DNA of 63,329 nt, the filler included, from Stramenopiles sp. TOSAG23-6 (lineage: Eukaryota): NCBI GenBank assembly GCA_900128565.1. It is 28 parts of 28 records of this genome, joined end to end, with 100 filler letters (N's around TTAATTAATTAA, not from the genome) between each part and the next. Parts side by side here need not be neighbours in the genome. Positions count along the whole stretch, not along the records: positions 15,912 to 18,084 come from LT638248.1; positions 18,185 to 20,356 come from LT638249.1; positions 20,457 to 22,627 come from LT638250.1; positions 22,728 to 24,897 come from LT638251.1; positions 24,998 to 27,166 come from LT638252.1; positions 27,267 to 29,434 come from LT638253.1; positions 29,535 to 31,702 come from LT638254.1; positions 31,803 to 33,966 come from LT638255.1; 20 more parts are not named here. One strand, given 5' to 3'. A program made the translations under genes and the position numbers. The notes under the pieces are model-generated. The model was not told the origin of the DNA. It worked only from the letters and a program-made list of their open reading frames with translations, and did not search any database. Shown piece by piece: positions 17,713 through 63,329 of this stretch. The first letter of the stretch is position 1. Each line of letters starts with the position of its first letter.

Positions 17713-18238
17713 TTTTTTTAATATTCTAGTAGTGAAGCCATATTTTGGATTATACCCCATTACTTGTGGTTGTATTATTTCATCCACATGTATTTTTATT
17801 AATGTTTTGTTGGCGGATTAACCATAATATGTTGTTATTTTCTAAGAAGGCGCAATGACAAATGGTTTGTTGATGGATGAACCATAATATATTCGTTTTT
17901 AGAACTTTGATAAATTTTTTATACAATGTAAACATTATTGTCTTTAATTTTTATTATTTTTCAGACATTTTTATGTCAATAAAATAGCCGATAGCCCTTT
18001 CTTTTTAAAAAATAAAACTTCCTTGTTTGTTCATTTTTTTTTCTACGTCTTGTTGAGTTCAATATCGCCATTCCTAGAATATTTNNNNNNNNNNNNNNNN
18101 NNNNNNNNNNNNNNNNNNNNNNNNNNNNTTAATTAATTAANNNNNNNNNNNNNNNNNNNNNNNNNNNNNNNNNNNNNNNNNNNNGTACGAAATTTTGTAC
18201 CTAACGATTTTTTTTTGAAATATTTTTCCAAAATACAT

Positions 18239-18403
18239 GAAAGAGACAATTCTGAATGGGCTCATAAGACTAACACTTGGAGTGGTGATCGAAAAAATGA
18301 AGTTATATCGGTTAAAAAGAAGAAAATGTCAAAAGCTCTAGAAAATAGATTAAAAAGAGAAGAAGAGGCTAAAATGATGCGACAAAAGAGTTCAAAAGAG
18401 TAA
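18239..18403 (+). CDS. Last exon of an unknown protein, after the 3' half of a repeat intron
   Basis: ...CCAAAATACAT|gaa aga gac...; open to TAA. Confidence 0.45.
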   Translation, partial: ERDNSEWAHKTNTWSGDRKNEVISVKKKKMSKALENRLKREEEAKMMRQKSSKE

Positions 18404-18657
18404 TACGAAAGAAAGGATTTCGAGATTATATTATATTGTTGGTTCTATTGTTTATAAAAGAATGTTAGACTTTTTTACTACAAAAATACAGATAAATTAA
18501 CAAATTCGAATTTTCAAGAAAAAGAAACGTCTGTCAAAGGGGGAACACATCAACACCGAAAATTGTGTTTACAAGTATTACATTCTATAAATCACAAACA
18601 TTCTTCCTAATTAGATCTGAAATCTCTGATAAAAAGGGGGTTGACAAGTGATAAATA

Positions 18658-19917
18658 ATGATGTTAAGATCTCTTTCATCAGTGTACAGTTCCGTTGCAA
18701 CGCGTACATTCCATCGTGGTGTTACAACGCTCGTTCCTTTTGACTGGGAAGATCCATTTAACCTCACTTCTCAGTTAACAGAAGAAGAAATAATGACCCG
18801 AGATATGGCCCGTGCATATTGTCAACAAGAACTTTTACCACGTGTCCTTGATGCCAACCGAAATGAAACACATGACCCAAAAATGTTAAAAGAAATGGGT
18901 GAATTGGGTCTACTTGGACCAACAATTAATGGTTACGGCTGTTCGGGAGTGGGGTATGTTTCATATGGGTTAGTTGCTCGTGAAGTTGAACGTGTCGATA
19001 GTGCATATCGTTCCGCCATGAGTGTACAGTCATCACTTGTTATGCATCCTATTAATGCATTTGGATCAGAGGAACAAAAAAAAAAGTATATTCCGGAATT
19101 AGCTAAAGGAAAGATGGTCGGTTGTTTTGGACTAACTGAACCTAACCACGGTTCAGATCCTGGTGGCATGGAAACCAAAGCTAGAAAAGACGGGAACGGA
19201 AACGTTGTTCTCAATGGTTCAAAAAATTGGATTACTAACTCACCTGTAGCTGATGTTATGGTTATTTGGGCTAAAGATGATGAAGGGGATATTAGGGGAT
19301 AGTACATTTTCATTCTGTATATTTTTTTAAAAATCAATGAAATTCTGTACCTAACAAATTTTTTTTGTGTGACATATTTTTTCACCAACAGTATTGTTGA
19401 AAAAGGAACACCAGGTTTGTCTGCGCCAAAAATTGAGGGGAAATTTTCCCTCCGCGCCGGTGTAACCGGGATGATTTTTATGGAAGATGTCGTGATTCCT
19501 GAATCGAATATGCTTCCAAATGTGAAAGGCTTAAAAGGGCCGTTTTCGTGCTTAAATTCAGCACGGTATGGTATTTCGTGGGGTTCAATGGGAGCTGCTG
19601 AGTTTTGTTTTCATGCCGCAAGGGATTATGTATTAGACCGAAAGCAGTTTGGTAGACCTCTTGCTGCAAATCAACTCATGCAAAAAAAAATGGCAGATAT
19701 GTTGACTGATATTTCATTAGGTCTTCAAGGTAGTTTGCAGGTGGGTAGACTTATCGATGAAGGTAATGTAGCTCCTGAAATGATTTCCATTATGAAACGA
19801 AATAATTGCGGAAAGTCTTTAGAAATTGCCCGTCAAGCTCGCGACATGCTAGGTGGAAATGGGATATCTGATGAATATCATATAATTCGACATGTTATGA
19901 ATTTGGAAGCTGTCAAT
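18658..19917 (+). CDS. GCDH: Glutaryl-CoA dehydrogenase, mitochondrial; exons 18658-19301, 19392-19917; final exon missing
   Basis: [68 protein letters not shown]; transit-peptide-like N-terminus. Confidence 0.95.
19302..19391 (+). mobile_element. Diverged family intron with canonical GT-AG ends
   Basis: gga ta|GTACAT...GTACCTAAC...AACAG|t att restores IRGYIVEKG. Confidence 0.85.
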
Positions 19918-20017
19918 GTATGTTTTATTTTTTTTTTGTATGATTTTTTTTTCGTACGAAATTTTGTACCTAACAATTTTTTTATGATTTTTTTTGAAAT
20001 ATTTTTCCAAAATACAT
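19918..20017 (+). mobile_element. Near-consensus introner-like element, GTATGT...AATACAT
   Basis: Full consensus including TTCGTACGAAATTTTGTACCTAAC; the downstream exon does not belong to GCDH. Confidence 0.8.
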
Positions 20018-20502
20018 TGGTTGGAAGTGGATGTTAGATAAAGGAAAGAAAAATGATATATCGGAGACTTGTTTCTTTCAAGGATTTTTAGGAAATTTAT
20101 TCGGGAAAAGTATTGAAGCGCATTTACAACAAGAAGGTCAATATATACTAGAAGGATTTAATCAATAAAAAAACATTGAAACATATTTTATTCCGTGAAA
20201 TGAATAATAAAATTCGAATAAAACTTTAGCTGTATGTAATCTCTCATATATTTTTCCCACTTACACTCTAGAATTATTTTTTTTTTAAATTTGTTAGGTA
20301 CAAAATTTCGTACAAAAAAAAATTGTTTACTCTATACACAATAAAAAATTCTCCCANNNNNNNNNNNNNNNNNNNNNNNNNNNNNNNNNNNNNNNNNNNN
20401 TTAATTAATTAANNNNNNNNNNNNNNNNNNNNNNNNNNNNNNNNNNNNNNNNNNNNTATCCAAATAACTATTCTTTTCAAAACTTATAAAAGTGCTACAA
20501 TA

Positions 20503-22566: not shown

Positions 22567-22780
22567 CATTAAGTAACACACCAGTTACAAGTGTTTATAT
22601 AAAAACACAAACAGGAATAGTACAAGTNNNNNNNNNNNNNNNNNNNNNNNNNNNNNNNNNNNNNNNNNNNNTTAATTAATTAANNNNNNNNNNNNNNNNN
22701 NNNNNNNNNNNNNNNNNNNNNNNNNNNGTACAAAATTTCGTACGAAAAAAAAATCGAATTTGAAAAAAAATAAAACGTAC

Positions 22781-23528: not shown

Positions 23529-23890
23529 ATAGTATTCATATAATATAATTTATATATATATATATATATAACTATGTAAGAGTATAAATCTTTTGTTGTT
23601 CTTTGCTTTTTTTTGAGAAAGCAATTTTTTATGAAACTGTCAAAAAATAACATCTTTCTAGTTTTTTTGTTTTTTTGTTTACGATAAAAAACACACACGA
23701 CACTCACTACAGTAGATAGTAAAGAGTAGAGAATAAAAAGCATTCAATCACTCACACGTTTAACTGGCTTGTATCACAATCAATATCGTATAAATATACC
23801 TAAAACAGTATAATTGAACGTTTCATCAATTATAGGATGTATCTTATTAAGTAAACGTAACCATCAAAGACGAGGCTGGTCATCAACATT

Positions 23891-24880
23891 ATGGACGAAA
23901 ATGAAAACTTTGAAAATGACGACTCAACATCTGTTTCAATAGGGAAATCAGGGTTCATTGACACACGAAATATTGGAAAGGATACAGTCAATGCAGATCA
24001 TTTGAGAACGTATGTGAATGATGAGATAGACATTTTCACAGAGAAGACACAAAAAAATATAGAAAACATATCGAAAATGCAAATTTCAAAGGATAGAAAA
24101 AAAAAGACTANAAAAAAAAAATTATTGGGTAGAAAATTTCATAGTAAAAAAAAGGATTTGAAGAAAATTAGACAAACTTTACCCATTGAGGAGTTTCCAA
24201 AACTAATAGCTGATTTAAGACTATGTAGATATAAGGTTGTACGGTGGGCGTGCAGGAGGTTAAGATGGCCATATTTAAAGAAAAATATTTCTGATATCTC
24301 AGCAGAGAAAAAATTATCGTATTGCAAAGGTTGTATGTTTTTTTTTTTTTAATTTCGAATTTATTTTTTTTTTTATAGTAAATTTTGTACCTAACAAAAA
24401 AATATTCAAAAAAAAAAAAGAAATATATTTTTATACTACATGTACTCCTGCTAATAGTGAAATTGGAAAGCATATAGAATATACAAAATACAATCAAAAT
24501 ATGATTGATCACTCAAATCATAATTCTACTATTAATACTTTTAATAAGCAAAATTATGTTACAGATAAACAATATATAAAAAATACAAAAAATACAAAAA
24601 ATACTACATTTCTAGACAATTCTATACATAAAGAAAAAAAACAAATGTCTGAAAAATTCGTACCAAATTTTGTACCTAAAGAAACAACACAAAAAAGCCA
24701 AAAAAGCCAAAAAAGCGTTGCTGGTTTAGTGTTTCATTACCCCCCGAGAACAATGCAATGGAAGCAAGATAATAAAACTGGATTTCGTTTACGGTTAGGA
24801 ATGACGGGAAATCATGTTTGTTTTCATCAAAAAGAAAATTTCGTACCAAATTTCGTACCAAGAAAAAAAAAACGATTTTT
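23891..24880 (+). CDS. Unknown protein, 3' partial; intron 24333-24441
   Basis: ggt t|GTATGT...CTACAT|gt act joins ORFs 23891 and 24501 in frame (CKGCTP). Confidence 0.5.
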
Positions 24881-25049
24881 TTTTTTTTTTTTTTTTTNNN
24901 NNNNNNNNNNNNNNNNNNNNNNNNNNNNNNNNNNNNNNNNNTTAATTAATTAANNNNNNNNNNNNNNNNNNNNNNNNNNNNNNNNNNNNNNNNNNNNACG
25001 AAATTTTGTACCTAACGATATTTTTTTGAAATATTTTTCCAAAATACAT

Positions 25050-27093
25050 GTTAGATCATGCTCACTTTTTATTAGCATTTTTAATGTTACAGCGAAAAAA
25101 AGGAGATATTGATCAAAAAATACCTCCGAAAATTGAGACACGAATTATGTAGGTTTTTTTTTTTTTTTTTTCAACATGAATATCAGAATATTTTTTGTAT
25201 ACAAAATTTTTTTTTTTTTTTTTCAAATATTTTTTTTAAATCAACTTTTTGATTGTAAAATATTTTTTTTTCAAATATTTTTTTTAAATCAACTTTTTGA
25301 TTGTACAATATTTTTCCATGTACATGTGTCCCTTAGCAGATGAGCAAAGATTTTGGTATAAAAGATTACTACTTAAAGAATCTAAACAATTAGAACAGTT
25401 GGAAAAAATTGCTCAACATCGCGACAATACGAAAAATATATCACAAACAATTTTAGGTAATGATTGGAAACGGTTACGCTCTCTTTTAATGCAGTTACGA
25501 AAATGTTGTAATCACCCTTTTTTATTTCCAAAAGCTGAAGCATCGATGATTTCAGATATCAAACAACGTTANAAACGAATTCGAAATGAAAGAAAAAAAA
25601 ATACAAATAATACTACAAATGATAATATTACAAATAATACAAATAATAATACTACTACAAATAATACAAATAATAATAATACTACAAATAATAATACAAA
25701 TAATAATAATACTACAAATAATAATACTACAAATAATAATACTACAAATAATAATACAAATAATACTAATAATACTACAAATAATAATACTATAAATAAT
25801 ACTAATAATACTACTACAAAACAACAAACAATATTAAGAGATAAAGAAATTGCAGAATGTATAATCAATGCTAGTGGTAAAATGATAATTCTTGATAAAA
25901 TGTTACATCATTTATTTGCAAATGGACATAGAATTGTTATATTTTCGCAATTTACAAAATTTCTAAATATTATTCATGACTATTTGAATTATCGAAAAAT
26001 TCAATTTGTACGATTAGATGGCAGTGTCAGTCGAGTAAGACGGATGATTGACATTTCAGAATTTAATAAACCGAATTCTCCCTATAAGGTATTTTTAATG
26101 AGTACTCGTGCTGGTGGGTTAGGTGTAAATCTACAGTCTGCGGATACAGTCATATTAATGGATTCAGATTGGAATCCACAAGTGGATCAGCAGGCTATGG
26201 CTCGAGTTCACCGAATTGGACAAAAAAAAATTACTCATATTTATAGATTTGTATCTGCTGGTACAATGGAGGAAAGAATGGTACAGAGAGCTGAAAAAAA
26301 ACTATTTTTAGACACTATGGTAAATAAAGGTGGTTCTATCAAATCTTCCATGGCAATGCAATCAAAAAATAACAACGATTTTACCCGTACTAACCCTAAC
26401 CCTAGTAAACATAGTAATCATTGTAATAGTATAAAAAATAGCAACAATAGTAGCAATGAAACATTAAGCGATATGGATTTGTTTAAAGCTTTAAGTTTTG
26501 GTGTTGATCGAATTTTTGATTCTCGACAATCATCACAAAAACACGAAAAAACGACATTTTTGTCAGATGAAGATATTTTAGAAATTATTCAACGAAAACA
26601 TCCAAATGATATAAATACCCCTAACCCTAGTGGTGATACAAATGTGGATTATACCACTACTACTGATATCAATAACAAAAATAACAAAAATAACAAAAAT
26701 TTTGAAACAACAAACCCTAACCCTAGTCTAAACCCTAACCCTACAGGACACGAGACAAAAACAAATAAAAAATGTGTCGCTTTGTCATATCATCAAAAAA
26801 ATACTACAAAAGATTTTGATGAGAATTTAGGATTTGTCGCTTTACGCGAATTTGAAGGTAAACATTATTCTAGGTTTGGTACGAAATGTAGTACAGATTC
26901 AAGAAAAAGTATTGATTATATCGAAAATGATAAAAATGATAAAAACCCTAACCCTCCTGTAAAAAAAAGAAAAAACGATTGTTTAGATTATAACCCTAAC
27001 CCTACTTCCTCCATGAGTGATGACCCAGTACTGTATAAACCGTTTCAAAAACGAAAACGAAACAAAAGATTTCTGTATTTTTTATTATTATGA
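25050..27093 (+). CDS. SNF2-family chromatin-remodelling ATPase, helicase C-terminal part; intron 25149-25325; Asn/Thr-rich insert
   Basis: IPPKIETRIM|CPL, LMQLRKCCNHPFLF, SGKM, FSQF, RLDG, STRAGGLGVNLQSADTV, DWNPQVDQQAMARVHRIGQ. Confidence 0.92.
25600..25820 (+). repeat. AAT/ACT/ACA low-complexity coding microsatellite (poly-N/T)
   Basis: Direct reading. Confidence 0.9.
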
Positions 27094-27318
27094 AAAAACA
27101 AAAATAAAAAAATGAATAATCATAATTCAAACACAATATTCTTTGGTTGTAGTCATATTTGAAATANNNNNNNNNNNNNNNNNNNNNNNNNNNNNNNNNN
27201 NNNNNNNNNNTTAATTAATTAANNNNNNNNNNNNNNNNNNNNNNNNNNNNNNNNNNNNNNNNNNNNACGAAATTTTGTACCTAACGATTTTTTTTTGAAA
27301 TATTTTTCCAAAATACAT

Positions 27319-29351: not shown

Positions 29352-29797
29352 GTAGGTTTTCAACATTAAATTTCGAATTTTTTGTACCAAATTTTGTACC
29401 TAACGAATTTCGAATGTAAAATAAATTTCACAATNNNNNNNNNNNNNNNNNNNNNNNNNNNNNNNNNNNNNNNNNNNNTTAATTAATTAANNNNNNNNNN
29501 NNNNNNNNNNNNNNNNNNNNNNNNNNNNNNNNNNGTTTGACCAACATCATCATATTCTTGTTTTGTATTTTTCATATTTTTATTCGTCGTAGACTCATTG
29601 GACAGTTGATGAATCTCTGATGTATCAATGATATCACTCTTATCATCTAGTTCAAGTAATAATGATTCCATGCGCTTTTTGTTTCGTTCATATTGCTTTT
29701 GAGCATTAATCATCTGTAACTGTGCTTCATCTCTAGCTTTGTAGTCCTCAATTTCAAGGTTTTCAAATACTTGACGATAAATTTGTTTCTCTCTACG

Positions 29798-32183: not shown

Positions 32184-32284
32184 ATGGATTATGAAAAAAT
32201 ATTTCGAAAAAAAAATCGTTAGGTACAAAATTTCGTACGAAAAAAAATTTCGATTTTTTTGTAAAAAAAAAAAATAAAACATAC
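32184..32284 (-). mobile_element. Introner-like intron, GTATGT...ATCCAT
   Basis: gca t|GTATGT...CAT|gc ccc; family consensus. Confidence 0.75.
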
Positions 32285-33106
32285 ATGCTTTTTTGCCTAT
32301 TGTTTTTACACTTTTTGGAATTTTGATTGTAGCTAGAGGGGTGCCAGCAAATGCATATGCGTCGATCGTTTCCGTCGTCGCTGGTAGTGTAAATTCACTA
32401 ATTTTTGTATTTGAAAAACAGCCACTTTTAAAATGTTTCACAGCTTCTTTGTTTGTAACAGTAGTAAGTTTTGAACAACCACCAACCAATCCAGATTGAA
32501 CTGTATGTATTTTGGAAAAATATTCAAAAAAAAATCTAAAAAAATCGTTAGGTACGAAATTCCGTACGAAAAAAAAATCGAATTTGAAAAAAAAATAAAA
32601 CATACATCAGTGCCTTTCTGCAGCTGAATTGTTGTCAACTCTGAGCTACCAAAAAACAAACTGTTACCAACACTAGTGACATGGGTTGGAATTGAAACAG
32701 TGGTTATTGCCCTGCTGGTTGAAAAGGCATGATCTCCCAGTGTTTTAAGACTTCCTGGAAAGGAAAGAATTTTAATTTTGTTCCCATTAAACGCATTTTG
32801 TTCAATGGTGACTAAGTTTTGGGCTTCAGAAATATCAAGATCTTCCAAGTGGTTACAATTCTGAAACATTTTTGCATTAATCTTTGTCACATTCTTTGTG
32901 ATTTTAACCTTTACGATATTCGGACAATGCATTGGTGCGCAGACGCCGTTATTCGAGGTGTAGGTTTTGGTGGAATTTTCTTTAAGCGTCAAAGTTGTAT
33001 CGAGAATGGTATAACTGTTTTGATCGATATTGCAATCGACAACAGCCGCTGCAAAATGGACATTTGCTGCGAAAATTGCAATTAAGAGTAAAGCGTAATT
33101 GGACAT
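32285..33106 (-). CDS. Secreted/surface BspA-type (LRR_5) leucine-rich-repeat protein; intron 32505-32605
   Basis: Signal peptide; xxIPxSVxTIGxxAF-type repeats; KGTD|TVQSG joined in frame. Confidence 0.8.
32505..32605 (-). mobile_element. Introner-like intron, GTATGT...AATACAT
   Basis: AT acceptor keeps the LRR frame; the next AG (4 nt downstream) shifts frame to a stop. Confidence 0.8.
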
Positions 33107-33912: not shown

Positions 33913-34066
33913 GTATGTTTTATTTTTTTTTTNANAAAAAAANCGAANTTTATTTTTCATACGAAANNNNNNNNNNNNNNNNNNNNNNNNNNNNNNNNNN
34001 NNNNNNNNNNTTAATTAATTAANNNNNNNNNNNNNNNNNNNNNNNNNNNNNNNNNNNNNNNNNNNN

Positions 34067-36230
34067 CAGGTGGGTTTGGTGCTATAAGTGGCGGAGCGTC
34101 TGCTTTCGGTGGTTCTTCATAGGCTGGAGGAGCAACATTATGCTTTTCAGAGCCTGGCATTCTTACAAGTACTTTAGAACAGAACCGACATTCATTTCCA
34201 CCACGCTCCATTTCGAATTGTTTACAAGTCATTCCAGTATGATACGGCATCGCAAAACAAGAACTACAAAATATTGTATCACATTTAGGACAACGCAAGC
34301 GATTCTGATTAAAATGTTTCAATGCCATACCAGATAATTTCGACCCATCAGGCATACGTTCAGAGTCTGGGGCAGGTAATAGTAAAGCACTATCGTTATT
34401 CGCTAATACAGACTTTTCAAGGGGCAACCTACATGAAGGTTCGGGGCATGGATTATGAAAAAATATTTCGAAAAAAAAATCGTTAGGTACAAAATTTCGT
34501 ACGAAAAAAAATTTCGATTTTTTTGTAAAAAAAAAAAATAAAACATACATGCTTTTTTGCCTATTGTTTTTACACTTTTTGGAATTTTGATTGTAGCTAG
34601 AGGGGTGCCAGCAAATGCATATGCGTCGATCGTTTCCGTCGTCGCTGGTAGTGTAAATTCACTAATTTTTGTATTTGAAAAACAGCCACTTTTAAAATGT
34701 TTCACAGCTTCTTTGTTTGTAACAGTAGTAAGTTTTGAACAACCACCAACCAATCCAGATTGAACTGTATGTATTTTGGAAAAATATTCAAAAAAAAATC
34801 TAAAAAAATCGTTAGGTACGAAATTCCGTACGAAAAAAAAATCGAATTTGAAAAAAAAATAAAACATACATCAGTGCCTTTCTGCAGCTGAATTGTTGTC
34901 AACTCTGAGCTACCAAAAAACAAACTGTTACCAACACTAGTGACATGGGTTGGAATTGAAACAGTGGTTATTGCCCTGCTGGTTGAAAAGGCATGATCTC
35001 CCAGTGTTTTAAGACTTCCTGGAAAGGAAAGAATTTTAATTTTGTTCCCATTAAACGCATTTTGTTCAATGGTGACTAAGTTTTGGGCTTCAGAAATATC
35101 AAGATCTTCCAAGTGGTTACAATTCTGAAACATTTTTGCATTAATCTTTGTCACATTCTTTGTGATTTTAACCTTTACGATATTCGGACAATGCATTGGT
35201 GCGCAGACGCCGTTATTCGAGGTGTAGGTTTTGGTGGAATTTTCTTTAAGCGTCAAAGTTGTATCGAGAATGGTATAACTGTTTTGATCGATATTGCAAT
35301 CGACAACAGCCGCTGCAAAATGGACATTTGCTGCGAAAATTGCAATTAAGAGTAAAGCGTAATTGGACATATTTAACTTTTTACACTTATGAAAAAAGTT
35401 ACAAGTTCCAAGGATTTAAATTAGCTTTTCAATTAACAACAAATATAGTTTATGAGCTTTTACGGTTTTTTGAGTAATTTTTTTTGATGTCCCATCAAAC
35501 TTTTTGATGTCAAATCAAAAATTTCAAAATTTCCCGCAAATTGACAATTTAAATTGTAGTATTGTATACGGTTACATAATGACCAGCTGCTGTTTACCAC
35601 TTATACATTTGCAAGTGAGTACATAGGATTGATTACTACAAGTATTCGCTAATACCTACTATAACATCAACGGAATAATTATTCACATTACATTATAATA
35701 AAGATTCATTTACGAAAGAATGGCTGCAGTATTATGCACTGCTCCGTGTAAATGTGTCGCAGAATGTTGTAAAGGTTGTTGCAAAGGAATTGAAGATTGT
35801 TGCAACAGCTGTGGTAAGTGTTGTGATAGTGTTTGCGGTGTTTGCGGACCCTGTTCTCAGTTTTTTTCTAAATTTCTTGAAAAGCCTTTCGCAGGGTATT
35901 GTCTCTTTACGCTTGGTGTTTGTGCTCTTCCTGGATTAGCAAGTTTCTATGCTTTTAGCGGATTTGCCAGTAGTGAAGACGATGAAGATTGTTCTTTAAG
36001 AATGTGGCACGTAGTTCAATGTTTGATCATGTTGAGTCATTTTTTCTTTGGGATGTATGTAGTACAACGATTTTCTAGACCATATGATGAAAACAATCCT
36101 TCCGATAATACCCCTCAAAATCGATTTCAATACTTATTGTATCACGACCCAGTTATGGCATTGTACATATTAGTTTGTATGTTTTATTTTTTTTTTNANA
36201 AAAAAANCGAANTTTATTTTTCATACGAAA
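34067..36230. repeat. Exact second copy of contig 31803-33966
   Basis: Identical ORFs offset by 2264, including identical single-N positions. Confidence 0.95.
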
Positions 36231-36918: not shown

Positions 36919-36950
<32 letters not shown>

Positions 36951-37010: not shown

Positions 37011-37071
37011 CGTTCGAAATTTTTTTCCTAACGATTTTTTTTTTTTTTTGAAATATTTTTCCAAAATACAT

Positions 37072-38319
37072 TCGGCCTTTAATTTTATGTCAACCTATAA
37101 TGATTGAAATTACCCGAGGTGTATTAGTAAGAGCTCTAGCATCACATGGAGGTGGTGCTAATGGAACAAAACGGGTCAATTCTCGTATATTAGATTTAGT
37201 GTTATATATATTAGTTATGTATGTTTTATTTATTTATTTATTTATTTTTTTTTGATTAATTGTTTTTCATACGAAATTTTGTACCTAACATTTTTTTTAA
37301 GATTTTTTTTTGAAATATTTTTCTAAAATACATTTCAATACAAATTGTAAAGGAACATTGTTTTACATCATGTAAAGATGCAAAAGAAGCTGCTCAAACG
37401 TATGCAAATGCAAAACAAGATGCTTTGGAAAAAACAAAATTGTGTTATCAGATAGAAAAATTATACAAACAACAAAATCAACAACAAAATCAACAAAAAA
37501 ATCAACAAAAAAATCAACAACAAAATCAACAACAAAATCAACAACAAAATCAACCACAAAACTCTACAATAACTAGTACAACTACCCCGCCCCCACCACC
37601 ACCACCTACAGATTCAAATGATGATGATTTTGATGATATTGATGATGTTCATGATTATGATATTGATTATGATGAATTATTAGCAGAAGAAGATAACCTG
37701 ATATCAAGGATGATGAACCCTAACCCTAACACTACAACAACTAACCCTAACCCTAACCCTAACCTTACAACTACAATAAATGATGTATTAGTAGCAGAAC
37801 AAAATGCCACGAAATCAATGGAAAAATGTGAAAAGTGTTATTTAGACTTTTTAGTTTCAGATTATGTATATTTTATTTATTTTTTTTTCAAAAAAATCGA
37901 ATTATTTTTTCGTACGAAATTTTGTACCTAACAAAATTTTTTAGATTTTTTTTGAAATATTTTTTCAAAATACATTTACCAGCTTTATCGCGTGAAGATT
38001 CTCAATCCAATTTGAGTATTTTAACTTTATTATTAGAAATAGAAGAACAATCAAATAATGAAAATTTTGATGAACCAGACATAAATATGACGTCACCATT
38101 AGGGTTAGGGTTAGATGATTCACAAAAGGGAAATATTGAATGGATTTTGGATAGAGTTAGTCAAGATAATATTGATTGTAAAAAAAAAATACAAATATTT
38201 CGTGATTTAAAAAAAAAAAAAAGACAAGAAACATCAAAACATAATTCTCTACGCTCGGCTGTTGGTGATAAAAAGAAGCAAATGGCTTTAAATGTTCAAA
38301 AACGAATGATGGAAAATAT
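37072..38319 (+). CDS. Internal exons (37072-37218, 37334-37865, 37976-38319) of a large protein, possibly a UBR-type E3 ligase
   Basis: Frame maintained across GT-AT introns 37219-37333 and 37866-37975; SILTLLL...IEWIL...QKRMMENM loosely resembles the pre-RING region of UBR1 (weak). Confidence 0.5.
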
Positions 38320-43416: not shown

Positions 43417-45245
43417 ATGTCACGGCATATTCCAGAACCAACAAAATCTACCAAAGAATGGCTGAAGTCTACTAGTGAAAAGCTCTTAGGTGATATTGAT
43501 GAAATAGAATTATGCAAGGGCACGTCAAGTTCATATGATACAAATCAATGGGGCGAGTGGACCCCAGAGCCAACTTCGTTGCCTTCGGCTGATAAGTACG
43601 CAGATCTTGACGCGTATGAACGTACTTTAAAAAGAAGTACTGGGACAATTGAAGAAAAGTGTAATGCTACAAACGCTGACATCGAAATGAAACCTATACG
43701 TACAGGTTCTAATTTCTCCCAAGTGGCTCATTCATGGGACCTTGGTGCTCAAGTGAGTCGCTTACATCCAGAAGATTGTTTAGAATCTTCGACAACTGTG
43801 AAACCACAATCTTGTACAACTGAGCCAATTTATAGATTATTTGGTTTATGTAAACAATATTCCAATATTGCTTCTCTTTATCAAGAAAATGCTGATGAAT
43901 TGAGTATAGATAAGGAAAAATGTTTCTGTCCAATATCAACTTTTCTCATGGAAGATCCAGTTACTCTATTTACCGATAAAACGAGCTACGATCGGTGGTA
44001 TGTATGTTTTATTTTTNNNNNNNNNNNNNNNNNNNNNNNNNNNNNNNNNNNNNNNNNNNNNNNNNNNNNNNNNNNNNNNNNNNNNTATTTTTCCAAAATA
44101 CATCTCCTTCATTTTTTTCAGTCTAATGGTGATATTCATCCTGTAACACTAACGCCTTTATCTGACAAATCATATTTTGCAAATGATGAATTAAAAAAAA
44201 AATGTGAAAAATATTTCAGACAAACAGATAAACAACGTCAGTTGCATAAAAAATTAAGTATACTTTTACGTAGAGTGTATCAAATATGTGCTGAAGAAAA
44301 GGTATTTCGTAGACAACGACTTGTAATTGAAGAATCTTATCATATAAAGGATAAAATATTTGAAGATGTAAATAGAGGAATGAAATTTATAGAAAACATT
44401 TGTCCACATAACGAAATTGATGCAGGATTTGTTGAACCTATACAACAAAAACAACAAAAACGATGGCATACTTTATCAGATAATAGTGATGATATAGAGT
44501 CAACACATTCACAAGTGGAACCATTAGGAAAATGTCCAAAGTTTACACGAAATATTGAAAACGTAAAGAAACTAGAGCGGCCTAATGTTTGGGAAAATAT
44601 CCATTTACTCACGGAGAAAACATTATCATTAGCATCGAATACATTAAAATCACCATTAGCATCGAATACATTAAAATCACCATTAGCATCGAATACATTA
44701 AAAACAACCACAACAATGAAAAATTCTCCGAGTCCATGGTTACGTCATCAAGCTCAATCTCGAACTCGGTTTACTATACCCCTTCCATGTACATTTTCAT
44801 TATTTTTTTTGCCTATTTTTTTTTCATACGAAATTTTGTACCTAATAACAAAACTNNNNNNNNNNNNNNNNNNNNNNNNNNNNNNNNNNNNNNNNNNNNN
44901 NNNNNNNNNNNNNNNNNNNNNNNNNNNNNNNNNNNNNNNNNNNNNNNNATATTTTGGAAAAACAAATAGATCGACGACGTCAACGGCAACGAAATAGAAG
45001 TGCTGTAAAATTGGTACGGCGTCAGTTGTTAGACAGAATGGAAAATCAGGCGGAAATGTTTCATTCTCTTGTAGCAGGTTCTTTCCAACGTGAATCTGAA
45101 ATGAAAAAGCTTATACCTTGGAAATGTTGTGTCGATACGGCTACAAAAAAAAGACGAAAACGACAAAAGAAAAAGAGAAAAAATCGTGATTTGACTTTAA
45201 ATAATCAATTGAATGTAACGTTTGAAAAAATTGAGTCTGAAGCAT
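43417..45245 (+). CDS. U-box domain protein, 3' partial; introns 44002-44103 and ~44789-44969
   Basis: CFCPISTFLMEDPV...SYDRWY|LLHFF...HPVTLTPL...N.ELKK. Confidence 0.75.
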
Positions 45246-45385
45246 GTATGTTTTTTTTTTCAATTTCGAATTTATTTTCGTANNNNNNNNNNNNNNNNNN
45301 NNNNNNNNNNNNNNNNNNNNNNNNNNTTAATTAATTAANNNNNNNNNNNNNNNNNNNNNNNNNNNNNNNNNNNNNNNNNNNNCCA

Positions 45386-48764: not shown

Positions 48765-48991
48765 AAAAATGGCAAGCTAGGGTTAGGGTTAGTAAAAAAT
48801 AAGCGTTATTTTTAGGACGGTTACAGTGTGTGTATGAAAAAAAAGAGAGATACTGGACAAATAAGATTTTATTTGATCTAGTGATATCTTTTTTTAAAGT
48901 TCTTTTGTCGATATCATTCTTTGTTGTATCTTATAAATAGCGTATATCTTCTGAATTAGAGTAAGTACATTTTTTTCTATATTATATACAA

Positions 48992-51602: not shown

Positions 51603-52000
51603 TTATTCATACTTTTGAGAAACAAAAAATGAGCATCGTTTTTCACCTCGATTGCATAAAAGGGAGTGCACTGTTCGAAATATCTGTAAACTACATACAA
51701 CGTTTTCATCTGTCAATGCATTCTCATTATACATGTATTTTGGAAAAATATTTGAAAAAAAAAACCTTAAATTTGTTAGGTACAAAATTTCGTATGAAAA
51801 AAAATTCGATTTTTTTGTTAAAAAAAAAAATAAAACATACATATGATTACCACTATTTGTAGTTGAATTCTCCTTCAATACTGTTTGCAGCTTTGACATT
51901 AATATTTTCCCGACAAGTAATTCTTCAATAATTTCAGAAATAATGGTTTCTCTACACTGCTGACGATACGTCAAATGAACTTTTTCGTCACCATGAATAC
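51603..52000 (-). CDS. 3' exons of an unknown protein; intron 51733-51840
   Basis: cat at|GTATGT...AATACAT|g tat keeps frame; a second family copy lies at the contig end. Confidence 0.5.
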
Positions 52001-52154
52001 ATGTATTTTGGAAAAATATTTCAAAAAAAAATCGTTAGGTACAAAATTTCGTACNNNNNNNNNNNNNNNNNNNNNNNNNNNNNNNNNNNNNNNNNNNNTT
52101 AATTAATTAANNNNNNNNNNNNNNNNNNNNNNNNNNNNNNNNNNNNNNNNNNNN

Positions 52155-54311: not shown

Positions 54312-54411
54312 NNNNNNNNNNNNNNNNNNNNNNNNNNNNNNNNNNNNNNNNNNNNTTAATTAATTAANNNNNNNNNNNNNNNNNNNNNNNNNNNNNNNNN
54401 NNNNNNNNNNN

Positions 54412-55388
54412 TATCAAAAACCAATACAGAAAAATCAGTATCAAAAACCAATACAGAAAAATCAGTCTCAAATATTGCGAAAGAATTACGTATTGTGAAA
54501 CAAAATCTTGAATCAGCAATTGTAAAGAGAGATTTCATTTTATGTGCCAAACTTGATAAAGAAATAAAATCTTTGGAAGAATCCCAAAAAGAATTTGAAA
54601 GATTAGAAAAATTGAAGTATGAAAAAGTTCAGTTGAGAAGAGAGAGAGAAAAGAAACTTCAGATGGAAAAGGAAGCTAATGCAGCAAAGGCAAGAGCTTT
54701 AGAAAAAGAAAAAGATTTACAAATTGCAAAAGATGAGATCAAATCTTTAGAAGATAAGATTAAATTAGCTATTGTGAATAGAAATTTTACCCAATGTGCT
54801 GAATATGATGCCCAAATTAAAGAATTAAAATCTTTTATAGATTCACAAATGGTACTTGATGATGTGCTAAAAGATAATCACAAGAGAAAATTAAATGTTT
54901 GCGAAAATACAGATAGAAAACGTGCTAAAACAAATAGTGATGAAAATGATGAAAGTAGTGATGAAAATGATGAAAGTAGTGATGAAAATGATGAAAGTNA
55001 TGATGAAAATGATGAAAGTTNTGATGAAAATGATGAAAGTAGTGATGAAAATGATGAAAATGAAGCTACTGTGTATTCATCCCCTATCATAAAAAAATCT
55101 AGTCATGACGTCACACATAAAAAGGAAAACAAATCTTTGACATCGAAATGTTTTATGAAATGTGGATTTTATGGACAAAAACTTATTCTTCTCCCAAAAA
55201 ATCCTTCAGGATATTTTGGCATTCATTTCCATGAAAAATCAAAAAAATGGAATGTTCGACTGGAACATCAAGGTCGTTATTATAATGGTGGTAGATTTCC
55301 AACTGAAGAACAAGCAGCAAGAGCTCATGATGCTTTAGCCCTTCGATTAGGGTTTAAAGTTCCTTTGAATTCAGAAAAAAAAATCTGA
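54412..55388 (+). CDS. AP2-domain protein with two UVR-like helical repeats and an acidic (DENDESS)n tract, 5' partial
   Basis: SGYFGIHF...KW...G.F.TEEQAARAHD.LAL...PLN; AIV.R.F..CA twice; 21-bp tandem repeat ~54935-55063. Confidence 0.75.
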
Positions 55389-56513: not shown

Positions 56514-56899
56514 GTTTTATATGAATTTCTAATTTAATTTTTTTTTTCATACGAAATTTCGTACCTNNNNNNNNNNNNNNNNNNNNNNNNNNNNNNNNNN
56601 NNNNNNNNNNTTAATTAATTAANNNNNNNNNNNNNNNNNNNNNNNNNNNNNNNNNNNNNNNNNNNNTAATTTTTTTGTTAGGTACAAAATTTTTATAAAA
56701 AACCAAAAAAAAAAAAAAATTAAAATTTAAAAAAAAAAAAAAAAAATTAAAATTTAAAAAAAAAAAAAAAAATTTAAAATTTAAAAAAAAAAAAAAAAAT
56801 TTGAAAAAAAATTTTAAAATTTTTTAGGTAAAAAATTTTGTTTGAAAACCAAAAAAAAAAAAAAAAAAAATTTATGGAAAAAAAAATAAAAAAACATAC

Positions 56900-58713
56900 G
56901 AGGTCGTTTCTTCTTTTTTTGCGTGTGTTTTACGTGTGTTTTTGATTCTACACTATTTTTTTCAGATGTTTCGGATTTCGTGTCATTTCCAGTTTTTTTT
57001 TTGATTGTTTTGGTTGTATCAATTATACGTAATAATTTTGTAACAACTATACCTATATTGAAAAAAAATATTTCAAAAAATTTTGTTAGGTACAAAATTT
57101 TTATAAAAAACCAAAAAAAAACAAATTTCGAAATTGAGAAAAAAAAAAGTTGTTAGGTACGAAATTTCGTACGAAAAAAAAACTAGATTTAAAAAAAAAA
57201 AAAAAAAAAAACATACTTTCATCAAGAGATTGCATGTGTAAAGAAAATTCTTGACCAGCAATGAGAGGCACAGATAATAAGGGTAAGGTCCTTAATTTTG
57301 CTCTAAATTTTGTCACAGCCAACACAGGATCATGTTTTGTGTAGTAGGGTTAGGGTTAGGTTTTTTTTCTTTGTTAGGTTTGAAATTTTTATAAAAAACG
57401 TTTAAAAAAAAACTTTATAAAAAATTTAAAATTTTTTTTTTTTTTTTTTTTTTAAATTTTTAAAAATTAAAAAAAAAAAATGAAAACAGTAAACATACAT
57501 GGATACTACATAAAATTGAACCAATGGATAACATTGACGCATCAACATCAGTTAAAGTGACTTCTACATTATCTCCAGCTCCAGCTATTTCACCACGTGA
57601 GCCATAAATTGTATAAATATATTTAAAAAAAAAAATGTTTAGGTACAAAATTTCGTATGAAAACCAAAAAAAAAAAAAAAAATTGAAATCTGAAATATAT
57701 TTAAAAAAAAAATTTGTTTTTTGGTTAGGTACAAAATTTCGTATGAAAAAAAAAAAAAAAAAAAAAAATTGAAATCTGAAACATACATCATCATACACAA
57801 TATGTTTCACAGTTGCTTGTTGCCCCAATGGCATAATAAGAACATCATCTCCGGGGGCTATAGAGCCCGATTCAATTTTACCTGCAGCACAGACATATTT
57901 ACCACTTGAAAACATATTGGCAACACACATTCTAAGTGGTGCATGTATTTTGGAAAAATATTCAAAAAAAAAAAAAAAAAAATTAGTTTTTTTAGTTTTT
58001 TTAGTTTTTTTAGTTTTTTTAGGTTTTTAGGTACAAAATTTTTATAAAAAAAAAAAAAAAAAAATCGAATTTGAAAAAAAAATTTGAAAAAAAAAAAAAC
58101 ATACATCATCTAATCGTGTAGTCGCTTCAAATGCGTCAATAGATTCAAGCAGCGTTGGTCCTTTGTACCAATTCCCCGGGTGTTGAAGTTCATCAGCATC
58201 ATCGTTTAATACATATTCATCTAACTGAACAGTATTACCGGGTAATGTACCATTAAAATGTTCTGGGATTTCGGAGGATAATGTTTTTTGGAAAAATATT
58301 TGAAAAAAAAATCTAAAAAAATTTGTTAGGTACAAAATTTCGTACGAAAAAAAAATTCAAAAAAAATTGAGAAAAAAAAAAATTACATGCACTCATACCA
58401 TCGCCAGTAGTAGAATTATTTTTTGTATTTTTTGAATTTTTTGTATTTTTTGAATTTTTTGTATTTTTTAGTGTTTGTGCAGTATCAAAAGTATTGACTA
58501 AATTTGTACCTAACAACCCAGATACTGGAACAAAGCTGTATTTTGTAAAACCTTGTTTTTGTAAATATTTTTTTAATTGTTTTGAAATATTTGTAAATCT
58601 TTTTTTATCCCAATTTACACAATCCATTTTATTAATTACAACAACCAACTGAGTAACTCCTAATGCTCGAATAAGAATAATATGTTCTTGGGTTTGACCT
58701 TCTAAACAAAATC
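56900..58713 (-). CDS. HBS1/eRF3-like translational GTPase, internal part; introns 58281-58386, 57943-58104, 57604-57786, 57332-57498, 57053-57216
   Basis: GQTQEH.ILIRALGV.QLVVVINKMD, VPVSGL.G.N, WYKGPTLLE.ID, D|APLRM, GKIESG, AGAGDNV. Confidence 0.85.
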
Positions 58714-58921
58714 ATTTTTTTTGTGAAAATATTTCAAAAAAAAAAAAATTTAATATTTTTTTTTTAAATATGTTTGATATTCAAAAAAAAAAAAAAAAAA
58801 AAAAAAAAGTTTTTTTCAAAANNNNNNNNNNNNNNNNNNNNNNNNNNNNNNNNNNNNNNNNNNNNTTAATTAATTAANNNNNNNNNNNNNNNNNNNNNNN
58901 NNNNNNNNNNNNNNNNNNNNN

Positions 58922-59911
58922 ATGAGTATGGTCGTGCATTGGATTCTCTAATTAAATCATGTTCTGACATTCTCTGTGTGCGAAATGTTGAAGCTGATGA
59001 CTTTGAAGTATTTCTTGGTTGTCGAAATGTAGAACCTCAACCTGACTTTTGGTTCATTGGAGGAAGAAATCGACCAGGTGACACGACTGTCGAAGGTGCA
59101 GTGAAAAACATAAAACGTGAGTTGAATATAGATATAGAACCACATCGTTTCAGTGTTCTTTGTAATTTTTCATTGTTATGGTCAAGACGATCACAAGAAC
59201 CAAAAGAAAATGGAACAGCAGACATTTCTACAATTCATGTTGTACAGTTAAACGAAAAAGAAGTTAAAAGTATTTCTCTTGATCAAAAGGAGTATTCAAA
59301 AGCACAGTGGTTTTTATGGAAAGATGTGTTATATGGTGACTTTCATCCTGCTTTACAGTGTGCAATTCTTTATTTTAAATGTAGACAAGTGTATGGTTTA
59401 TTTTTTCCACATCTACATAATTTTTTTTCGTACGGAATTTTGTACCTAACAAAAAAATGTACAAAAAAAAATATTTTTTCAAAAAACATGTATTTAAAAA
59501 TGAAAAATTTGATTCAATCCAAAAAAAGTAAGTTTTCTTTTTTTGTTTCCTTCCTACTTTGTAGTAAAATATTTTGATTTTGTTTTCCCCTATCATTTGA
59601 ATATCCATTTGAATATCCATTTGAATGTCCATTTGAATATCCATTTGAATGTCTCATTTCATACCAAACCAACCATAAACGATGTAGTGTTCTACGCATC
59701 TTTGGATTCCGTACCAATTTTTCATACCTAAAAAAATAATATATGTTTTTACAATAAATGTCCAGAAGAAATTTCACTTTGTGCTAGTGATTTTGTTACG
59801 TATCAAAATTTATCTGAACAATACAAAATTACAAAAGTATTTTTTGAAGATGGAAAATATAAATATATCAAAGGTAAAAAGTTTTCTGACTTTCATACAT
59901 CTGTGGGTTAG
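58922..59911 (+). CDS. Nudix hydrolase, 5' partial; introns 59391-59489 and ~59528-59759
   Basis: R.VEPQPDFWFIGGR.RPG....A...I.REL Nudix-like box. Confidence 0.75.
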
Positions 59912-60125
59912 GGTTAGGGTCTCAAAAAAAATACTCTTTTTATAATCTAATCAAGTTACTAGTCTATTATATAAAATATTTCAAAATTTATTTTATCCAA
60001 CAACAAAAACACAATATATTCGTATATATTCTATATACGATCGATGTTTTTGTAACTTTTTTTTTTATATTCGTCTATATTCTATATACAATCGATGTTT
60101 TTGTAACTTTTTTTTTTATGTTCGT

Positions 60126-61076: not shown

Positions 61077-61198
61077 NNNNNNNNNNNNNNNNNNNNNNNN
61101 NNNNNNNNNNNNNNNNNNNNTTAATTAATTAANNNNNNNNNNNNNNNNNNNNNNNNNNNNNNNNNNNNNNNNNNNNAATTTTGTATGTAATAAAATAT

Positions 61199-61242
<44 letters not shown>

Positions 61243-61302
61243 GTAGATAATTTCGTACCTAACAAACAAATTGTAGCAAAAAAATTTCTTTTTGAAATAC
61301 AT

Positions 61303-61618
61303 GGTCAAAGAAATGGTCTTGATGGGATTGTAACAATACCAAAATCTGTCACAGCGTCAAGAATCCTTCAAAATGCAAGTTGTGTGGATGTGTGTTTTTC
61401 ATCATGAATTTCAAATTTTGAAATTTTTTTTTTTGAAATTTTTTTTTTCGTACGAAATTTTGTACCTAACAATTTTTTTTTGGAATTTTTTTTCAGAATT
61501 ACAGGAGGGTTGGTCGATCCCACAAGAAATGATGGATACATTATCTAAAGCTGATGTTGGTTTTAAAGCCTCAGGTTCTGTGAATGACATGAAAATTCCA
61601 TGGACAACAATAAAATAA
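61303..61618 (+). CDS. Aldo-keto reductase, C-terminal exons; GT-AG intron 61390-61504
   Basis: VTIPKSVT.SRI.QN motif. Confidence 0.75.
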
Positions 61619-61697
61619 ATTTTTAAATAAAAAAATTTATTTTTAATTTTTTTTTTTATAAATTTTTTTGACCGAATTTCGTACCTAGAGAATATAA

Positions 61698-63329
61698 TCA
61701 CAATGGTGGACTGCTGGCTCTTCCACTTTTACTTGATCGAGGTGATCTTGGTGGTGATGTTTTTTGAAAAAATATATTTCATTCAAAATTGGTGAGTTGA
61801 AAAATGTAAAGGTACAAAATTTTCCATAAAAAAAACAAAAAAACATTTTAAAAGTAAAAAAAAATAGTAAAAAATAGTGTAAAAAATAGTAAAAAAATAG
61901 TAAAACAAACCTACATCTTGGTGATCTTGGCGGTGAATGAAGAGGTGATGGTGATCGTGGAGTTAATTCTCCCCACGGAGATCGTGGATCTGTTGTTGGA
62001 TTTGCTCTTGGTGATATTGAAATCGAGTCTATATGAAATTTGGTACTTGATGAATTTCGAATTTGTTGAGTTCCAAATGAAGAAGACAATGTCATTTTTG
62101 AGGCGATTGTATTTGCCGTACTGGGAGAAATATTTGTTGAAGGGTTTACTGGAACGGTGGTATTTTTATGAATTGGACTGAATGCAGATTTAGTTTTATG
62201 TAGAGTTGATTGTATTGTTGATTTTGGTGATTGGAGTGGATTAGGGTTAGGGTTATGTGGATCAATAGTAGTAGTAGTATCTACTGTTGATTTTAATTTG
62301 ATTTGTTTGTTTTGATCTAATTCTGTAGATGCATTAATTTGTTTTATTTGATCTGCTTTTAATATAGTATCACCAATTGTGCTGTGATTTGTATCTGTAT
62401 TTCGTGGTGTATCTACTTCCTCTATTGTATATAAATCGTATTTAATATGTACAAATGTTGAAGGGAAGAAACCAACCATATGACGAATTTCACCTTTCCA
62501 CCAGCCACTCGCAGCTTGTTGTAATATTCTTATTAAATCGCCTTTTCTAAATGTTAATTCATTATTATCAGTTGCTACGTAATGTATTTTTGAGAAAATA
62601 TTTCAAAAAAAAAATCAAATTTTGTTAGGTACAAAATTGCCTACGAAAAAAAAAACATTAGGTTAAAAAATTAGGTGAAAAAAATGATTCTAAAAAAAAT
62701 GATGAGTAAAGACGTACATCCGCCAAAGCTATAGCCAATATAGAATTTTTGCCTCCTGGTGTTACGGGGGGCGAGTTGTATATAAAGTCTATATCATGGA
62801 TACCCGGTTCATTACGTGGATCATACGTATCCTGTATCATTTTGTTATTAGAATTTGAAATATCTGAAGATTTTTCTTCTATAGATTGCATGGCAAACGG
62901 TATTTTTGGTATTTTTGGTATTTTTGGTATTTTTGGTTGATTTTTCATACTAAATTTATTAAAACCTCTATATTTTCGACTGTCTCTTCGTAACTTGGCT
63001 ACAACGGGTGACAATCGTGATATTCTAGATGACATTGTTGTTGTTGTTGTTGTTGTTTTTGTTGAGGAATTATTTGAAACCTGAATGTTTTTATTTATGT
63101 TGTTTTCTTCAGAATCAGAATTTTCATTTGAAACTGATGGAAATGAAATAGATAGTGGTTTTATTACTATACTTAATTTTGGTTGTGGTTGTGGTATAGT
63201 GACGACAGATTGTTCTATTTGGTTTTGTGTTTTTTGTGTTTTTTGTGTTTTTTGTGGCGGAGGACCAAATGGTTTTGGTGGTTTTGGTGGTTTTGGTGGT
63301 TTTGGAGGTGGAGGACCAAATGGTTTTGG
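61698..63329 (-). CDS. SH3-domain protein with Pro-rich regions, 5' partial; introns 62582-62717 and 61757-61914
   Basis: AIALAD|YVATDNNELTFRKGDLIRIL...GWWKGE....GFFPSTFV. Confidence 0.88.
62582..62717 (-). mobile_element. Introner-like intron, GTACGT...AATACAT, inside the SH3 ALxDY motif
   Basis: gat|GTACGT...GTACCTAAC...CAT|tac; no AG between the branch motif and CAT. Confidence 0.85.

Follow-up and report, generated by a model that had tools for sequence, protein, structure and literature searches.

The sequence analysed here is a window of 63,329 bases (the whole stretch of DNA under study) from assembly GCA_900128565.1 of Stramenopiles sp. TOSAG23-6, in which a repeated A/T-rich element with intron-like ends, GT on the 5' side and mostly AT on the 3' side, interrupts protein-coding genes. 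The window is no single locus. It is made up of 28 blocks of 2153-2173 nucleotides (nt) each, ordered by length, with N-runs every ~2.26 kb that correspond to 27 identical linkers (N44-TTAATTAATTAA-N44, at 2174-2273, 4447-4546 and so on to 61077-61176). Blocks 1-8 are byte-identical and block 16 is a copy of block 15, so what look like tandem repeats, of 2273 and 2264 nt, are artefacts of the record and not biology. The unique sample comprises 20 contigs, ~42.9 kb excluding N, and all counts of the repeat family given below come from this one assembly. GC content in the window was 22-38%. Read with the standard genetic code, the long open reading frames (ORFs) give ordinary eukaryotic proteins: glutaryl-CoA dehydrogenase (GCDH), a proteasome ATPase, Sec24-like, SNF2-like and YchF-like proteins, an HBS1-like GTPase, aminoacylase-1, and SH3, NUDIX and BspA-LRR proteins. 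Sequencing runs that contain the stretch comprise small DNA sets from one organism along with seawater metagenomes and metatranscriptomes, and the source is taken to be an AT-rich, unicellular marine eukaryote; a protein-atlas query with the GCDH exon matched only generic acyl-CoA dehydrogenase clusters.

The repeated element was recognised by a 16-nt core, AAATTTTGTACCTAAC, which was matched 46 times at no more than one mismatch, compared to 0.03 matches expected from 100 shuffles; 31 of the 46 matches lie in non-duplicate sequence. A MAFFT alignment of 15 copies revealed three blocks with variable A/T-rich spacers between them. Block 1 begins with GTATGTTTTATTTTT, block 2 ends with TTTCGTACGAAATTTTGTACCTAAC, and block 3 consists of a T-run followed by GAAATATTTTT(C/T)CAAAATACAT. 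Complete copies measure 92-183 nt and have a GC content of 12-24%. Every copy is on the same strand as the gene that it interrupts, and the interrupted genes include those for the HBS1-like, aminoacylase-1, SH3, BspA-LRR, NUDIX, TPR and SNF2-like proteins. An earlier, sequence-only reading of the window had described one element that interrupts many unrelated genes, always in sense orientation, and had offered a consensus for it. The core count and the strand of every copy bear this out, the alignment reproduced the consensus, and the affected genes lie on separate contigs, so they are not neighbours.

All 20 complete copies listed by that reading begin with GT, end with AT and lie on the strand of the interrupted frame. 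The 5' hexamer was GTATGT in 11 copies, GTACGT in three and GTAGGT in two, with GTATAT, GTTTGT, GTAATT and GTATGG once each. CTAAC was present in 16 of the 19 copies examined, with T-runs downstream, and three copies had a degenerate motif. The distance from the last CTAAC to the 3' end had a median of 43 nt (n=16; typical range 35-47). In 9 of these 16 copies an AG lies between the branch and the 3' end, mostly as TAG or AAG 10-13 nt past the branch A, and in all but one of the nine it is out of frame with the donor. AGs this near a branch point can be sterically skipped. The last three bases of the copies were CAT (17), TAT (2) and AAT (1). On the exon side, the base preceding the element was T in 20/20 copies and the one before it A in 17/20, the three exceptions ending in TT, GT and GT.

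The long and highly conserved 5' and branch motifs, and the resemblance of CCTAAC to the U12 branch consensus, would also fit removal by the minor (U12-like) spliceosome, which tolerates non-AG 3' ends including GT-AT. However, the 5' motif of the family is GTATGT plus a T-run and not RTATCCTT, and its branch lies ~43 nt from the 3' end compared to the 10-20 nt typical of the TCCTTAAC branch. We consider this explanation quite unlikely, although the minor machinery can splice AT-AN and GT-AT introns and PMC1557818, in the relevant part, lists seven natural GT-AT introns of U12 type from human and mouse.

Some copies have grown, either by tandem duplication within the element, which gives two cores or two 3' blocks, or by a minisatellite, (CTAAAAAAA)n, directly after the branch motif. 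This is seen at 57604-57786, 57053-57216, 57943-58104 and 25149-25325, and it indicates that intron length changes fast while the ends stay fixed. A near-palindrome before the branch, CGTACGAAATTTTGTACC, was considered as a conserved hairpin and dropped, because its left arm varies among copies without compensation. Telomere-like arrays, (TTAGGG)2-4 on either strand, were found at 17 sites in the 42.9 kb of unique sequence compared to 0.005 expected, for example at 26390-26404, 26713-26743, 37716-37764, 38099-38114, 42062-42076, 48778-48792, 57345-57360 and 62241-62255. They sit in introns, in intergenic stretches and, in frame, within exons (reading NPNPNP or LGLG), and several adjoin or fall inside the CCTAAC branch motif, which is a permuted telomere unit. 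On the plus strand, a core-like stretch (..TTCGTACCAAATTTTGTACCTAAA..) and a tandem TTCGTACCAAAT pair occur at 24650-24690 and 24836-24870 inside an open exon frame, reading FVPNFVP; this may be a piece of the element that has become exonic, or the likeness may be due to chance.

To follow the reading frames across the element, the 20 complete copies were removed as GT..AT. The sequence-only reading had stated that about 20 copies keep an open frame when cut in this way. Removal brought the longest upstream frame into line with its longest downstream counterpart in 17 copies, for which the chance of 17/17 joins at 1/3 each is 8e-9, and the other three were indeterminate. These are 23-114, where the contig ends; 41826-41919, where N lies upstream; and 61757-61914, where the downstream exon is short and repetitive (its frame is 18 codons compared to a maximum of 23). 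Long open frames flank the element on either side in at least 12 different genes.

The HBS1-like gene of block 26, on the minus strand, carries the largest set of junctions examined by homology. It was modelled from six exons, and its protein was aligned with 60 of the 90 representatives (420-900 amino acids) among the 150 matches listed, the first 15 rows being inspected. Three introns, each AT-type, gave junctions that align gap-free with the representatives, for example with P0010 (slashes mark the junction): 57943-58104 at RLDD/APLRM, 57604-57786 at VYDD/GSRGE and 57332-57498 at CSIH/DPV. The second of these ends in TTTAT and has two cores through internal tandem duplication, and the third carries a telomere-like repeat near its 3' end. 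PDB HBS1L and a tblastn search with P0001 placed the HBS1-like junctions within one residue. A fourth AT-type junction, at 58281-58386 (phase 1, GTAATT donor), falls in a lineage-specific insert of the GTPase. The same gene also has the 3' part of a further upstream intron at 58714-58821, which ends in AAAAT before GA and FCLEGQ; an AG-type family intron at 57053-57216; and, at 56667-56899, its last intron in the contig, which has a GTATGT donor in phase 1 and runs off the contig.

In the aminoacylase-1 (M20) gene, on the plus strand, the AT-type intron at 42029-42166 (phase 1) follows an exon ending in GT and splits the first Trp of a WW pair (T/GG), and at its junction PWWAAF aligns with TWWTVF of PDB 1q7l_B. 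Upstream, the gene contains an AT-type intron in phase 0 at 41079-41187 and a family copy at 41383-41498 with uncertain boundaries. The homologous first base of the latter is A (ATACGT...TTAT), a telomere-like insert lies 8 nt in, and the frames fit either AT..AT in phase 0 or GT..TT starting 4 nt later in phase 1; the copy could be in decay or represent another variant of the borders. On the minus strand, the AT-type intron at 62582-62717 splits an SH3 domain in phase 0. Its junction, ..AIALAD/YVATDNNELTF.., is collinear with the N-terminal SH3 domain of GRB2 (..AKYDFKATADDELSF.., with ALAD/YVAT against AKYD FKAT). In total, five junctions are gap-free against homologues: three in the HBS1-like protein, one in aminoacylase-1 and one in the SH3 protein. 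A PDB search with two short exons gave no match.

We then considered canonical AG boundaries for the listed introns. A scan for GT/GC-AG pairs within +/-45 nt found frame-keeping pairs for most introns, as expected by chance. When the strong donor was kept, 9 of the 20 introns had no in-frame AG between -63 and +45 nt; in the other 11, a cut at an in-frame AG would change the protein by 2-21 codons, lost or gained. At 57943-58104, the +/-45 nt range contains no GT/GC-AG pair that preserves the frame. Canonical AG boundaries were contradicted by homology wherever homology was available, and we rejected them.

The remaining complete copies are found across the window. On the minus strand, a TPR-protein gene holds the AT-type intron at 23-114 (GTACGT...TATAT; repeated in blocks 2-8 at +2273 nt), whose downstream frame is shortened by the contig end, and the intron at 175-277 (phase 0) contains an unused TAG 12 nt past the branch A. 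In a BspA-type LRR gene on the same strand there are two AT-type introns, 32184-32284 in phase 1 (duplicate 34448-34548) and 32505-32605 in phase 0 (duplicate 34769-34869), the latter with a TAG 12 nt past the branch A that is out of frame with the donor. Further minus-strand copies are 51733-51840 (phase 2), in which an AAG 10 nt past the branch A is in frame and would add 11 codons, and 61757-61914 (phase 1), with a degenerate branch motif. On the plus strand, AT-type introns are found at 24333-24441 (phase 1, exon ending in TT), 37219-37333 (phase 2), 37866-37975 (phase 0, GTATAT donor), 41826-41919 (ending in TATAAT), 44002-44103 (phase 0, middle masked by N) and 59391-59489 (phase 2, after a NUDIX-domain exon that ends in GT). 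A diverged plus-strand copy at 25149-25325 (GTAGGT...GTACAT) precedes an SNF2-like exon, lacks CTAAC and carries an internal duplication. At 61183-61302 (+), the upstream exon of an AT-type intron amounts to 6 nt within the contig.

Nearly all spliceosomal introns end in AG, and the reading of the last G is known mainly from yeast mutants and a few odd lineages. The 3' ends of the family were counted at the homologous position over complete and partial copies in unique sequence: 31 of 34 were AT and 3 of 34 were AG. The family has the GT donor, the branch motif and the frame restoration of U2-type introns and mostly lacks their terminal AG. AT and AG ends coexist within it. At 61390-61504 (+), the ..TTACAG of a phase 0 intron (GTGTGT...TTACAG) stands, base for base, opposite the ..ATACAT of its siblings. 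The minus-strand intron at 57053-57216 (GTATGT...ATATAG, phase 1) has two cores, and a slide of +4 would turn it into GT..AT. At 19302-19391 (+), a GT(ACAT)...CAG intron in the GCDH gene has a family-like core with one mismatch; on one PDB GCDH chain the exons to either side meet directly, with one codon split between them, and the intron is an unambiguous GT-AG intron. The presence of CAG or TAG at the corresponding point in a few copies suggests that the machinery accepts G or U as the last base. The exon base before the element differed between the two classes, being T in 20/20 AT-type copies and in 1/3 AG-type copies (A, A, T; Fisher p=0.012). No introns outside the family were seen in the unique contigs, where the gaps between other ORFs look intergenic. 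In this small sample, a single family accounts for nearly all introns, with a terminal AT in about nine of every ten. The sequence-only reading had claimed terminal AT as the 3' end and routine use of YAT; 31 of the 34 family ends carry this terminal AT. It had also proposed to look for changes in the spliceosomal small nuclear RNAs (snRNAs). Rfam, at gathering thresholds, found no snRNA in 15912-63329, which leaves none to compare.

These counts also bear on the possibility that nothing is removed from RNA, the elements being germline-type insertions excised from DNA, the genes being dead copies, or the last-base T being an artefact of assembly or amplification. The assembly is fragmentary and derives from very small DNA data sets, and at least one contig appears to be a chimera joined at the repeat. 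Against this stand the genes that are open on both sides with conserved residues at the junctions, the T at 31 independent 3' ends while three copies have G, and the splice-signal motifs in correct order and orientation. The code is standard, and the borders are not TA-bounded, unlike those of sequences eliminated in ciliates. In addition, 7-11% of sampled words from blocks 26-28 occur in three seawater metatranscriptome runs; these are word matches and not placed reads, and the shares are uninformative on splicing and on habitat. We regard an explanation without RNA removal as highly improbable.

The length removed is the same in whichever register the element is cut, and the register itself is a matter of preference among the fits. 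The sequence-only reading had taken GT-AT as the one consistent register. This did not hold: TG..CA fits 20/20 copies as well as GT..AT does, and AT..AC fits 17/20, with an unchanged protein in two of the three remaining copies. DNA cannot fix the register, because the last exon base and the last intron base are both T in every copy, and this weighs against the exact boundaries preferred here. GT..AT is preferred because both of its termini are invariant and GTATGT is a textbook U2-type donor at +1 to +6, and not by exclusion. (G)/GTATG is also the donor consensus given for Diplonemidae in the part of PMC12621601 that deals with it.

The fit of AT..AC corresponds to a distinct explanation, in which the boundaries are slid by two bases and the introns are U2-type AT-AC-like, with GTATGT at +3 to +8. 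The 17 copies writable as AT..AC yield the same mRNA, the copies at 24333 and 42029 give the same protein in the slid register, and AT-AC introns have a known compatibility of first and last base. In this register, however, the 5' end would be TT or GT in three copies and the 3' end TA, TT or AT in the three copies ending in AAT or TAT, whereas GT..AT is invariant in 20/20 and places GTATGT at the U2-type donor positions. Slid AT-AC boundaries are therefore very unlikely.

The junctions have the layout AT/GTAT(G)TTTT...AAAATAC-AT/, in which a 2-nt direct repeat encloses a short, imperfect inverted one. The inverted termini are A/T-rich: GTAT(G)TTTT pairs with AAAATAC over 6-9 nt with one indel if the flanking AT is counted. 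A terminal helix AUGUAU/AUACAU of 6-8 bp (exon AU and GUAU with AUAC and AU) was present in the minimum-free-energy and centroid folds of all four copies folded, and the terminal duplex had a mean of -5.5 kcal/mol compared to -3.5 kcal/mol for shuffled 3' ends.

Such pairing is what would be expected of non-spliceosomal, euglenid-like excision, in which the paired ends align the junctions with a 2-nt stagger and the product is possibly a circle. The helix closes each folded copy and is stronger than in the shuffled controls, and both junctions carry repeats that resemble a target-site duplication (TSD). Pairing of terminal inverted repeats (TIRs), TSD-like repeats and non-canonical borders are reported for euglenid introns in the portion of PMC11282704 that treats them, and paired ends for introns of hemistasiid diplonemids in the corresponding portion of PMC12621601. 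Euglenid and hemistasiid introns, however, are without conserved boundaries, branch motif and polypyrimidine tract, whereas GT[AG]NGT, CCTAAC and the T-run persist here even in diverged copies. The helix is short and AU-rich, whole-intron folding does not differ significantly from that of shuffles, with z of -0.3 to -0.8, and where the exon ends in TT or GT (three copies) the 3' end has not changed to compensate. AG-ending members of the family also exist. On this evidence, non-spliceosomal excision is unlikely.

We propose instead, with a probability of roughly 0.68, that the family is a MITE-like (miniature inverted-repeat transposable element-like) introner that is spliced by the U2-type spliceosome at a non-AG (CAU) 3' site ~43 nt past the branch. 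A short mobile sequence would insert in sense orientation into a transcribed gene and then leave the pre-mRNA as a U2-type intron. Each copy would supply a 5' splice site of its own (GTATGT plus the T-run), together with an extended branch motif (..TTTTGTACCTAAC) and a T-rich tract that carries a conserved 3' block ending in ..ACAT. A 2-bp TSD together with TIRs would leave the AT/GTAT...ATAC-AT/ layout, and the host frame would be restored by removal of the element plus one copy of AT. If the 5' cut falls before GTATGT, the 3' cut must fall after ..CAT, and it would pass over AGs only 10-13 nt from the branch. The spliceosome would then accept U besides G at the last intron position, and a pair between G(+1) and U(-1) might replace the G-G terminal interaction (A-C in AT-AC introns). 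What the sequence establishes is the family itself, its orientation, the length removed, where the junctions fall in the proteins, and that AT and AG ends occur side by side. We infer spliceosomal removal at the RNA level, the exact register and the transposon origin from the DNA. Recent spread and a transposon origin, in particular, are suggested by the 2-nt AT repeat and the 6-9 nt imperfect inverted terminus.

A wider claim is that the major spliceosome of this organism has relaxed or switched its reading of the last base, such that about nine in ten of its introns are GT-AT, descend from one mobile element and use the 2-bp AT duplication as 3' site, with distance (~43 nt) replacing AG. We hold this tentatively, at a little under even odds; dominance of such introns in the whole organism would be an extrapolation from 20 short contigs.

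Several points weigh against the proposed U2-type introner. In yeast spliceosome structures the final G of the intron is recognised through its pairing with the first, and a last-base U should hinder the second step in a standard spliceosome. At 6-9 nt the inverted termini are short, and they are A/T-rich and interrupted; 3/20 copies lack a match to the 2-bp duplication, and the insignificant whole-intron folding adds nothing in favour. The 20 unique contigs showed no empty site, no autonomous partner and no intergenic copy. Protein-database searches at near and longer lengths, with set thresholds, found no transcript-derived protein. The conservation of GTATGT and CTAAC could partly reflect recent common descent and not function. 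Finally, the evidence is confined to 20 short contigs of one assembly, of which at least one is apparently chimeric. This confinement follows from the absence of the element in the other collections searched: metagenome contigs scanned with a 19-nt core gave only three loci (38-44% GC), which are chance matches without the element, and genome and viral contig collections scanned with a gapped pattern gave 0 matches.

Many of the partial copies lie at contig ends. Ten of the 40 unique contig ends are in or beside the CGTACGAAATTTTGTACC core, at 18185, 22728, 24998, 27267, 33966, 43021, 45282, 49898, 52054 and 56566. Since such repeats break short-read assemblies, this points to a very high copy number, and it suggests that the core is the most repeated k-mer of the genome, present in far more copies than the window holds. 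On the plus strand, 3' halves ending in ACAT stand at the contig starts 18185-18238, 24998-25049 and 27267-27318, and the final 25 nt of an element (..ATATAT) at the contig start 40859-40883. Plus-strand 5' halves run into contig ends at 24816-24897, 29352-29434 (GTAGGT...), 33913-33966 (with a duplicate in block 16) and 45246-45282, or into N at 41589-41664 (GTACGT...) and 44789-44855 (GTACAT...). A core with its 3' end (ACAT) is found at 37017-37071 (+), its 5' end lying within a long A/T tract. The minus strand has 3' halves at the contig ends 42967-43021 (ending in TGCAT) and 52001-52054 (ending in ACAT), and a 5' half after a YchF/OLA1-like exon at the contig start 49898-49950.

The contig that includes 19918-20356 was probably mis-joined through the repeat. 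The AT-type element at 19918-20017 (+) follows the GCDH sequence ...NLEAVN, the next exon is out of frame and not GCDH, and the last ~26 GCDH residues are missing. Further contigs of the assembly may be chimeric at elements as well. Elsewhere in the window, the C-terminal part (..GIHFHEKSKKWNVRLEHQGRYYNGGRFPTEEQAARAHD..) of the frame at 54360-55388 (+) resembles an AP2/ERF-type DNA-binding domain, as judged by eye; if borne out, this might assist in placing the organism.

If the proposed reading is true, 3' splice-site recognition would be isolated as an evolving variable, with AG-ending siblings alongside, and there would be another route by which the target duplication of a transposon supplies a splice site. 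It would also call for a wider rule set in introner discovery, as current screens discard unfamiliar ends that lack RNA support. On the wider claim, this would be the first lineage with GT-AT as its dominant intron class, and a natural system for study of the second catalytic step, with one base altered while 5' site, branch and tract are canonical. In marine single-cell and metagenome assemblies, gene callers restricted to AG would wrongly annotate the majority of genes in organisms of this kind. The sequence-only reading knew of no lineage dominated by GT-AT introns, and our literature search, which covered main texts only, likewise found none; overlap with diplonemid single-cell or similar work is possible. 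Non-GT-AG introns were predicted in 2016 from single-cell genomes of uncultured marine diplonemids, in a study that worked without transcripts, according to the passages on it in PMC12621601 and PMC10161547.

Introners with TIRs and TSDs create introns on insertion, as set out in the relevant parts of PMC11282704 and PMC12130899. Like the introners of Micromonas, Aureococcus and many aquatic eukaryotes in the parts of PMC11282704, PMC12130899 and PMC9860276 that describe them, the family consists of many near-identical sense introns that carry their own splice signals, and it resembles introners in its short TIR-like termini, its TSD-like junction repeat and its tendency to break short-read assemblies. 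Unlike described introners, it is AT-ended in 31/34 cases and has a weak TIR (6-9 nt) and TSD (2 nt, 17/20). The screen outlined in PMC12130899 accepted GT, GC, GA or AT at the 5' end and AG or AC at the 3' end, and families with unfamiliar sites were dropped unless RNA-supported. GT-AT introns in mammals, as treated in the cited part of PMC1557818, are rare single exceptions that complete both splicing steps, namely one conserved U2-type intron in DGCR2 besides the U12-type ones mentioned above. In the present sample they are the majority class and belong to one repeat family.

A further close comparison is with Fritillaria borealis. In the sections of PMC11282704 and PMC13326754 that concern it, its MITE-derived AG-AC and AG-AT introns are handled by a U2-type spliceosome, the 3' end repeats the preceding exon bases (exonic TAC), diverged U2AF paralogues bind the non-AG 3' ends, and the introns are recent and species-specific. 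Fritillaria introns, as described there, also lose the 5' GT and comprise many border combinations and many families, whereas the family here keeps the canonical GTATGT and branch motif, differs only in the last base and is a single family. Low-complexity inserts rich in N, T and K, together with the BspA-type LRR genes, suggest that the present organism is an AT-rich protist and no animal. Terminal pairing and TSD-like borders are shared with the introns of euglenids, hemistasiids and Amoebophrya, which are massive in number in marine protists according to the pertinent parts of PMC11282704, PMC12621601 and PMC7789003. The introns described in those parts have variable borders, GC-rich inverted ends in hemistasiids, few branch motifs and, in euglenids, no polypyrimidine tract; here the ends are AT-rich, and there is almost no variation in GT, CCTAAC, the T-run or the terminal AT. 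In Fritillaria, Amoebophrya, hemistasiids and euglenids both intron ends have drifted, whereas here the 5' site, branch and tract are textbook-like and the last base would be U.

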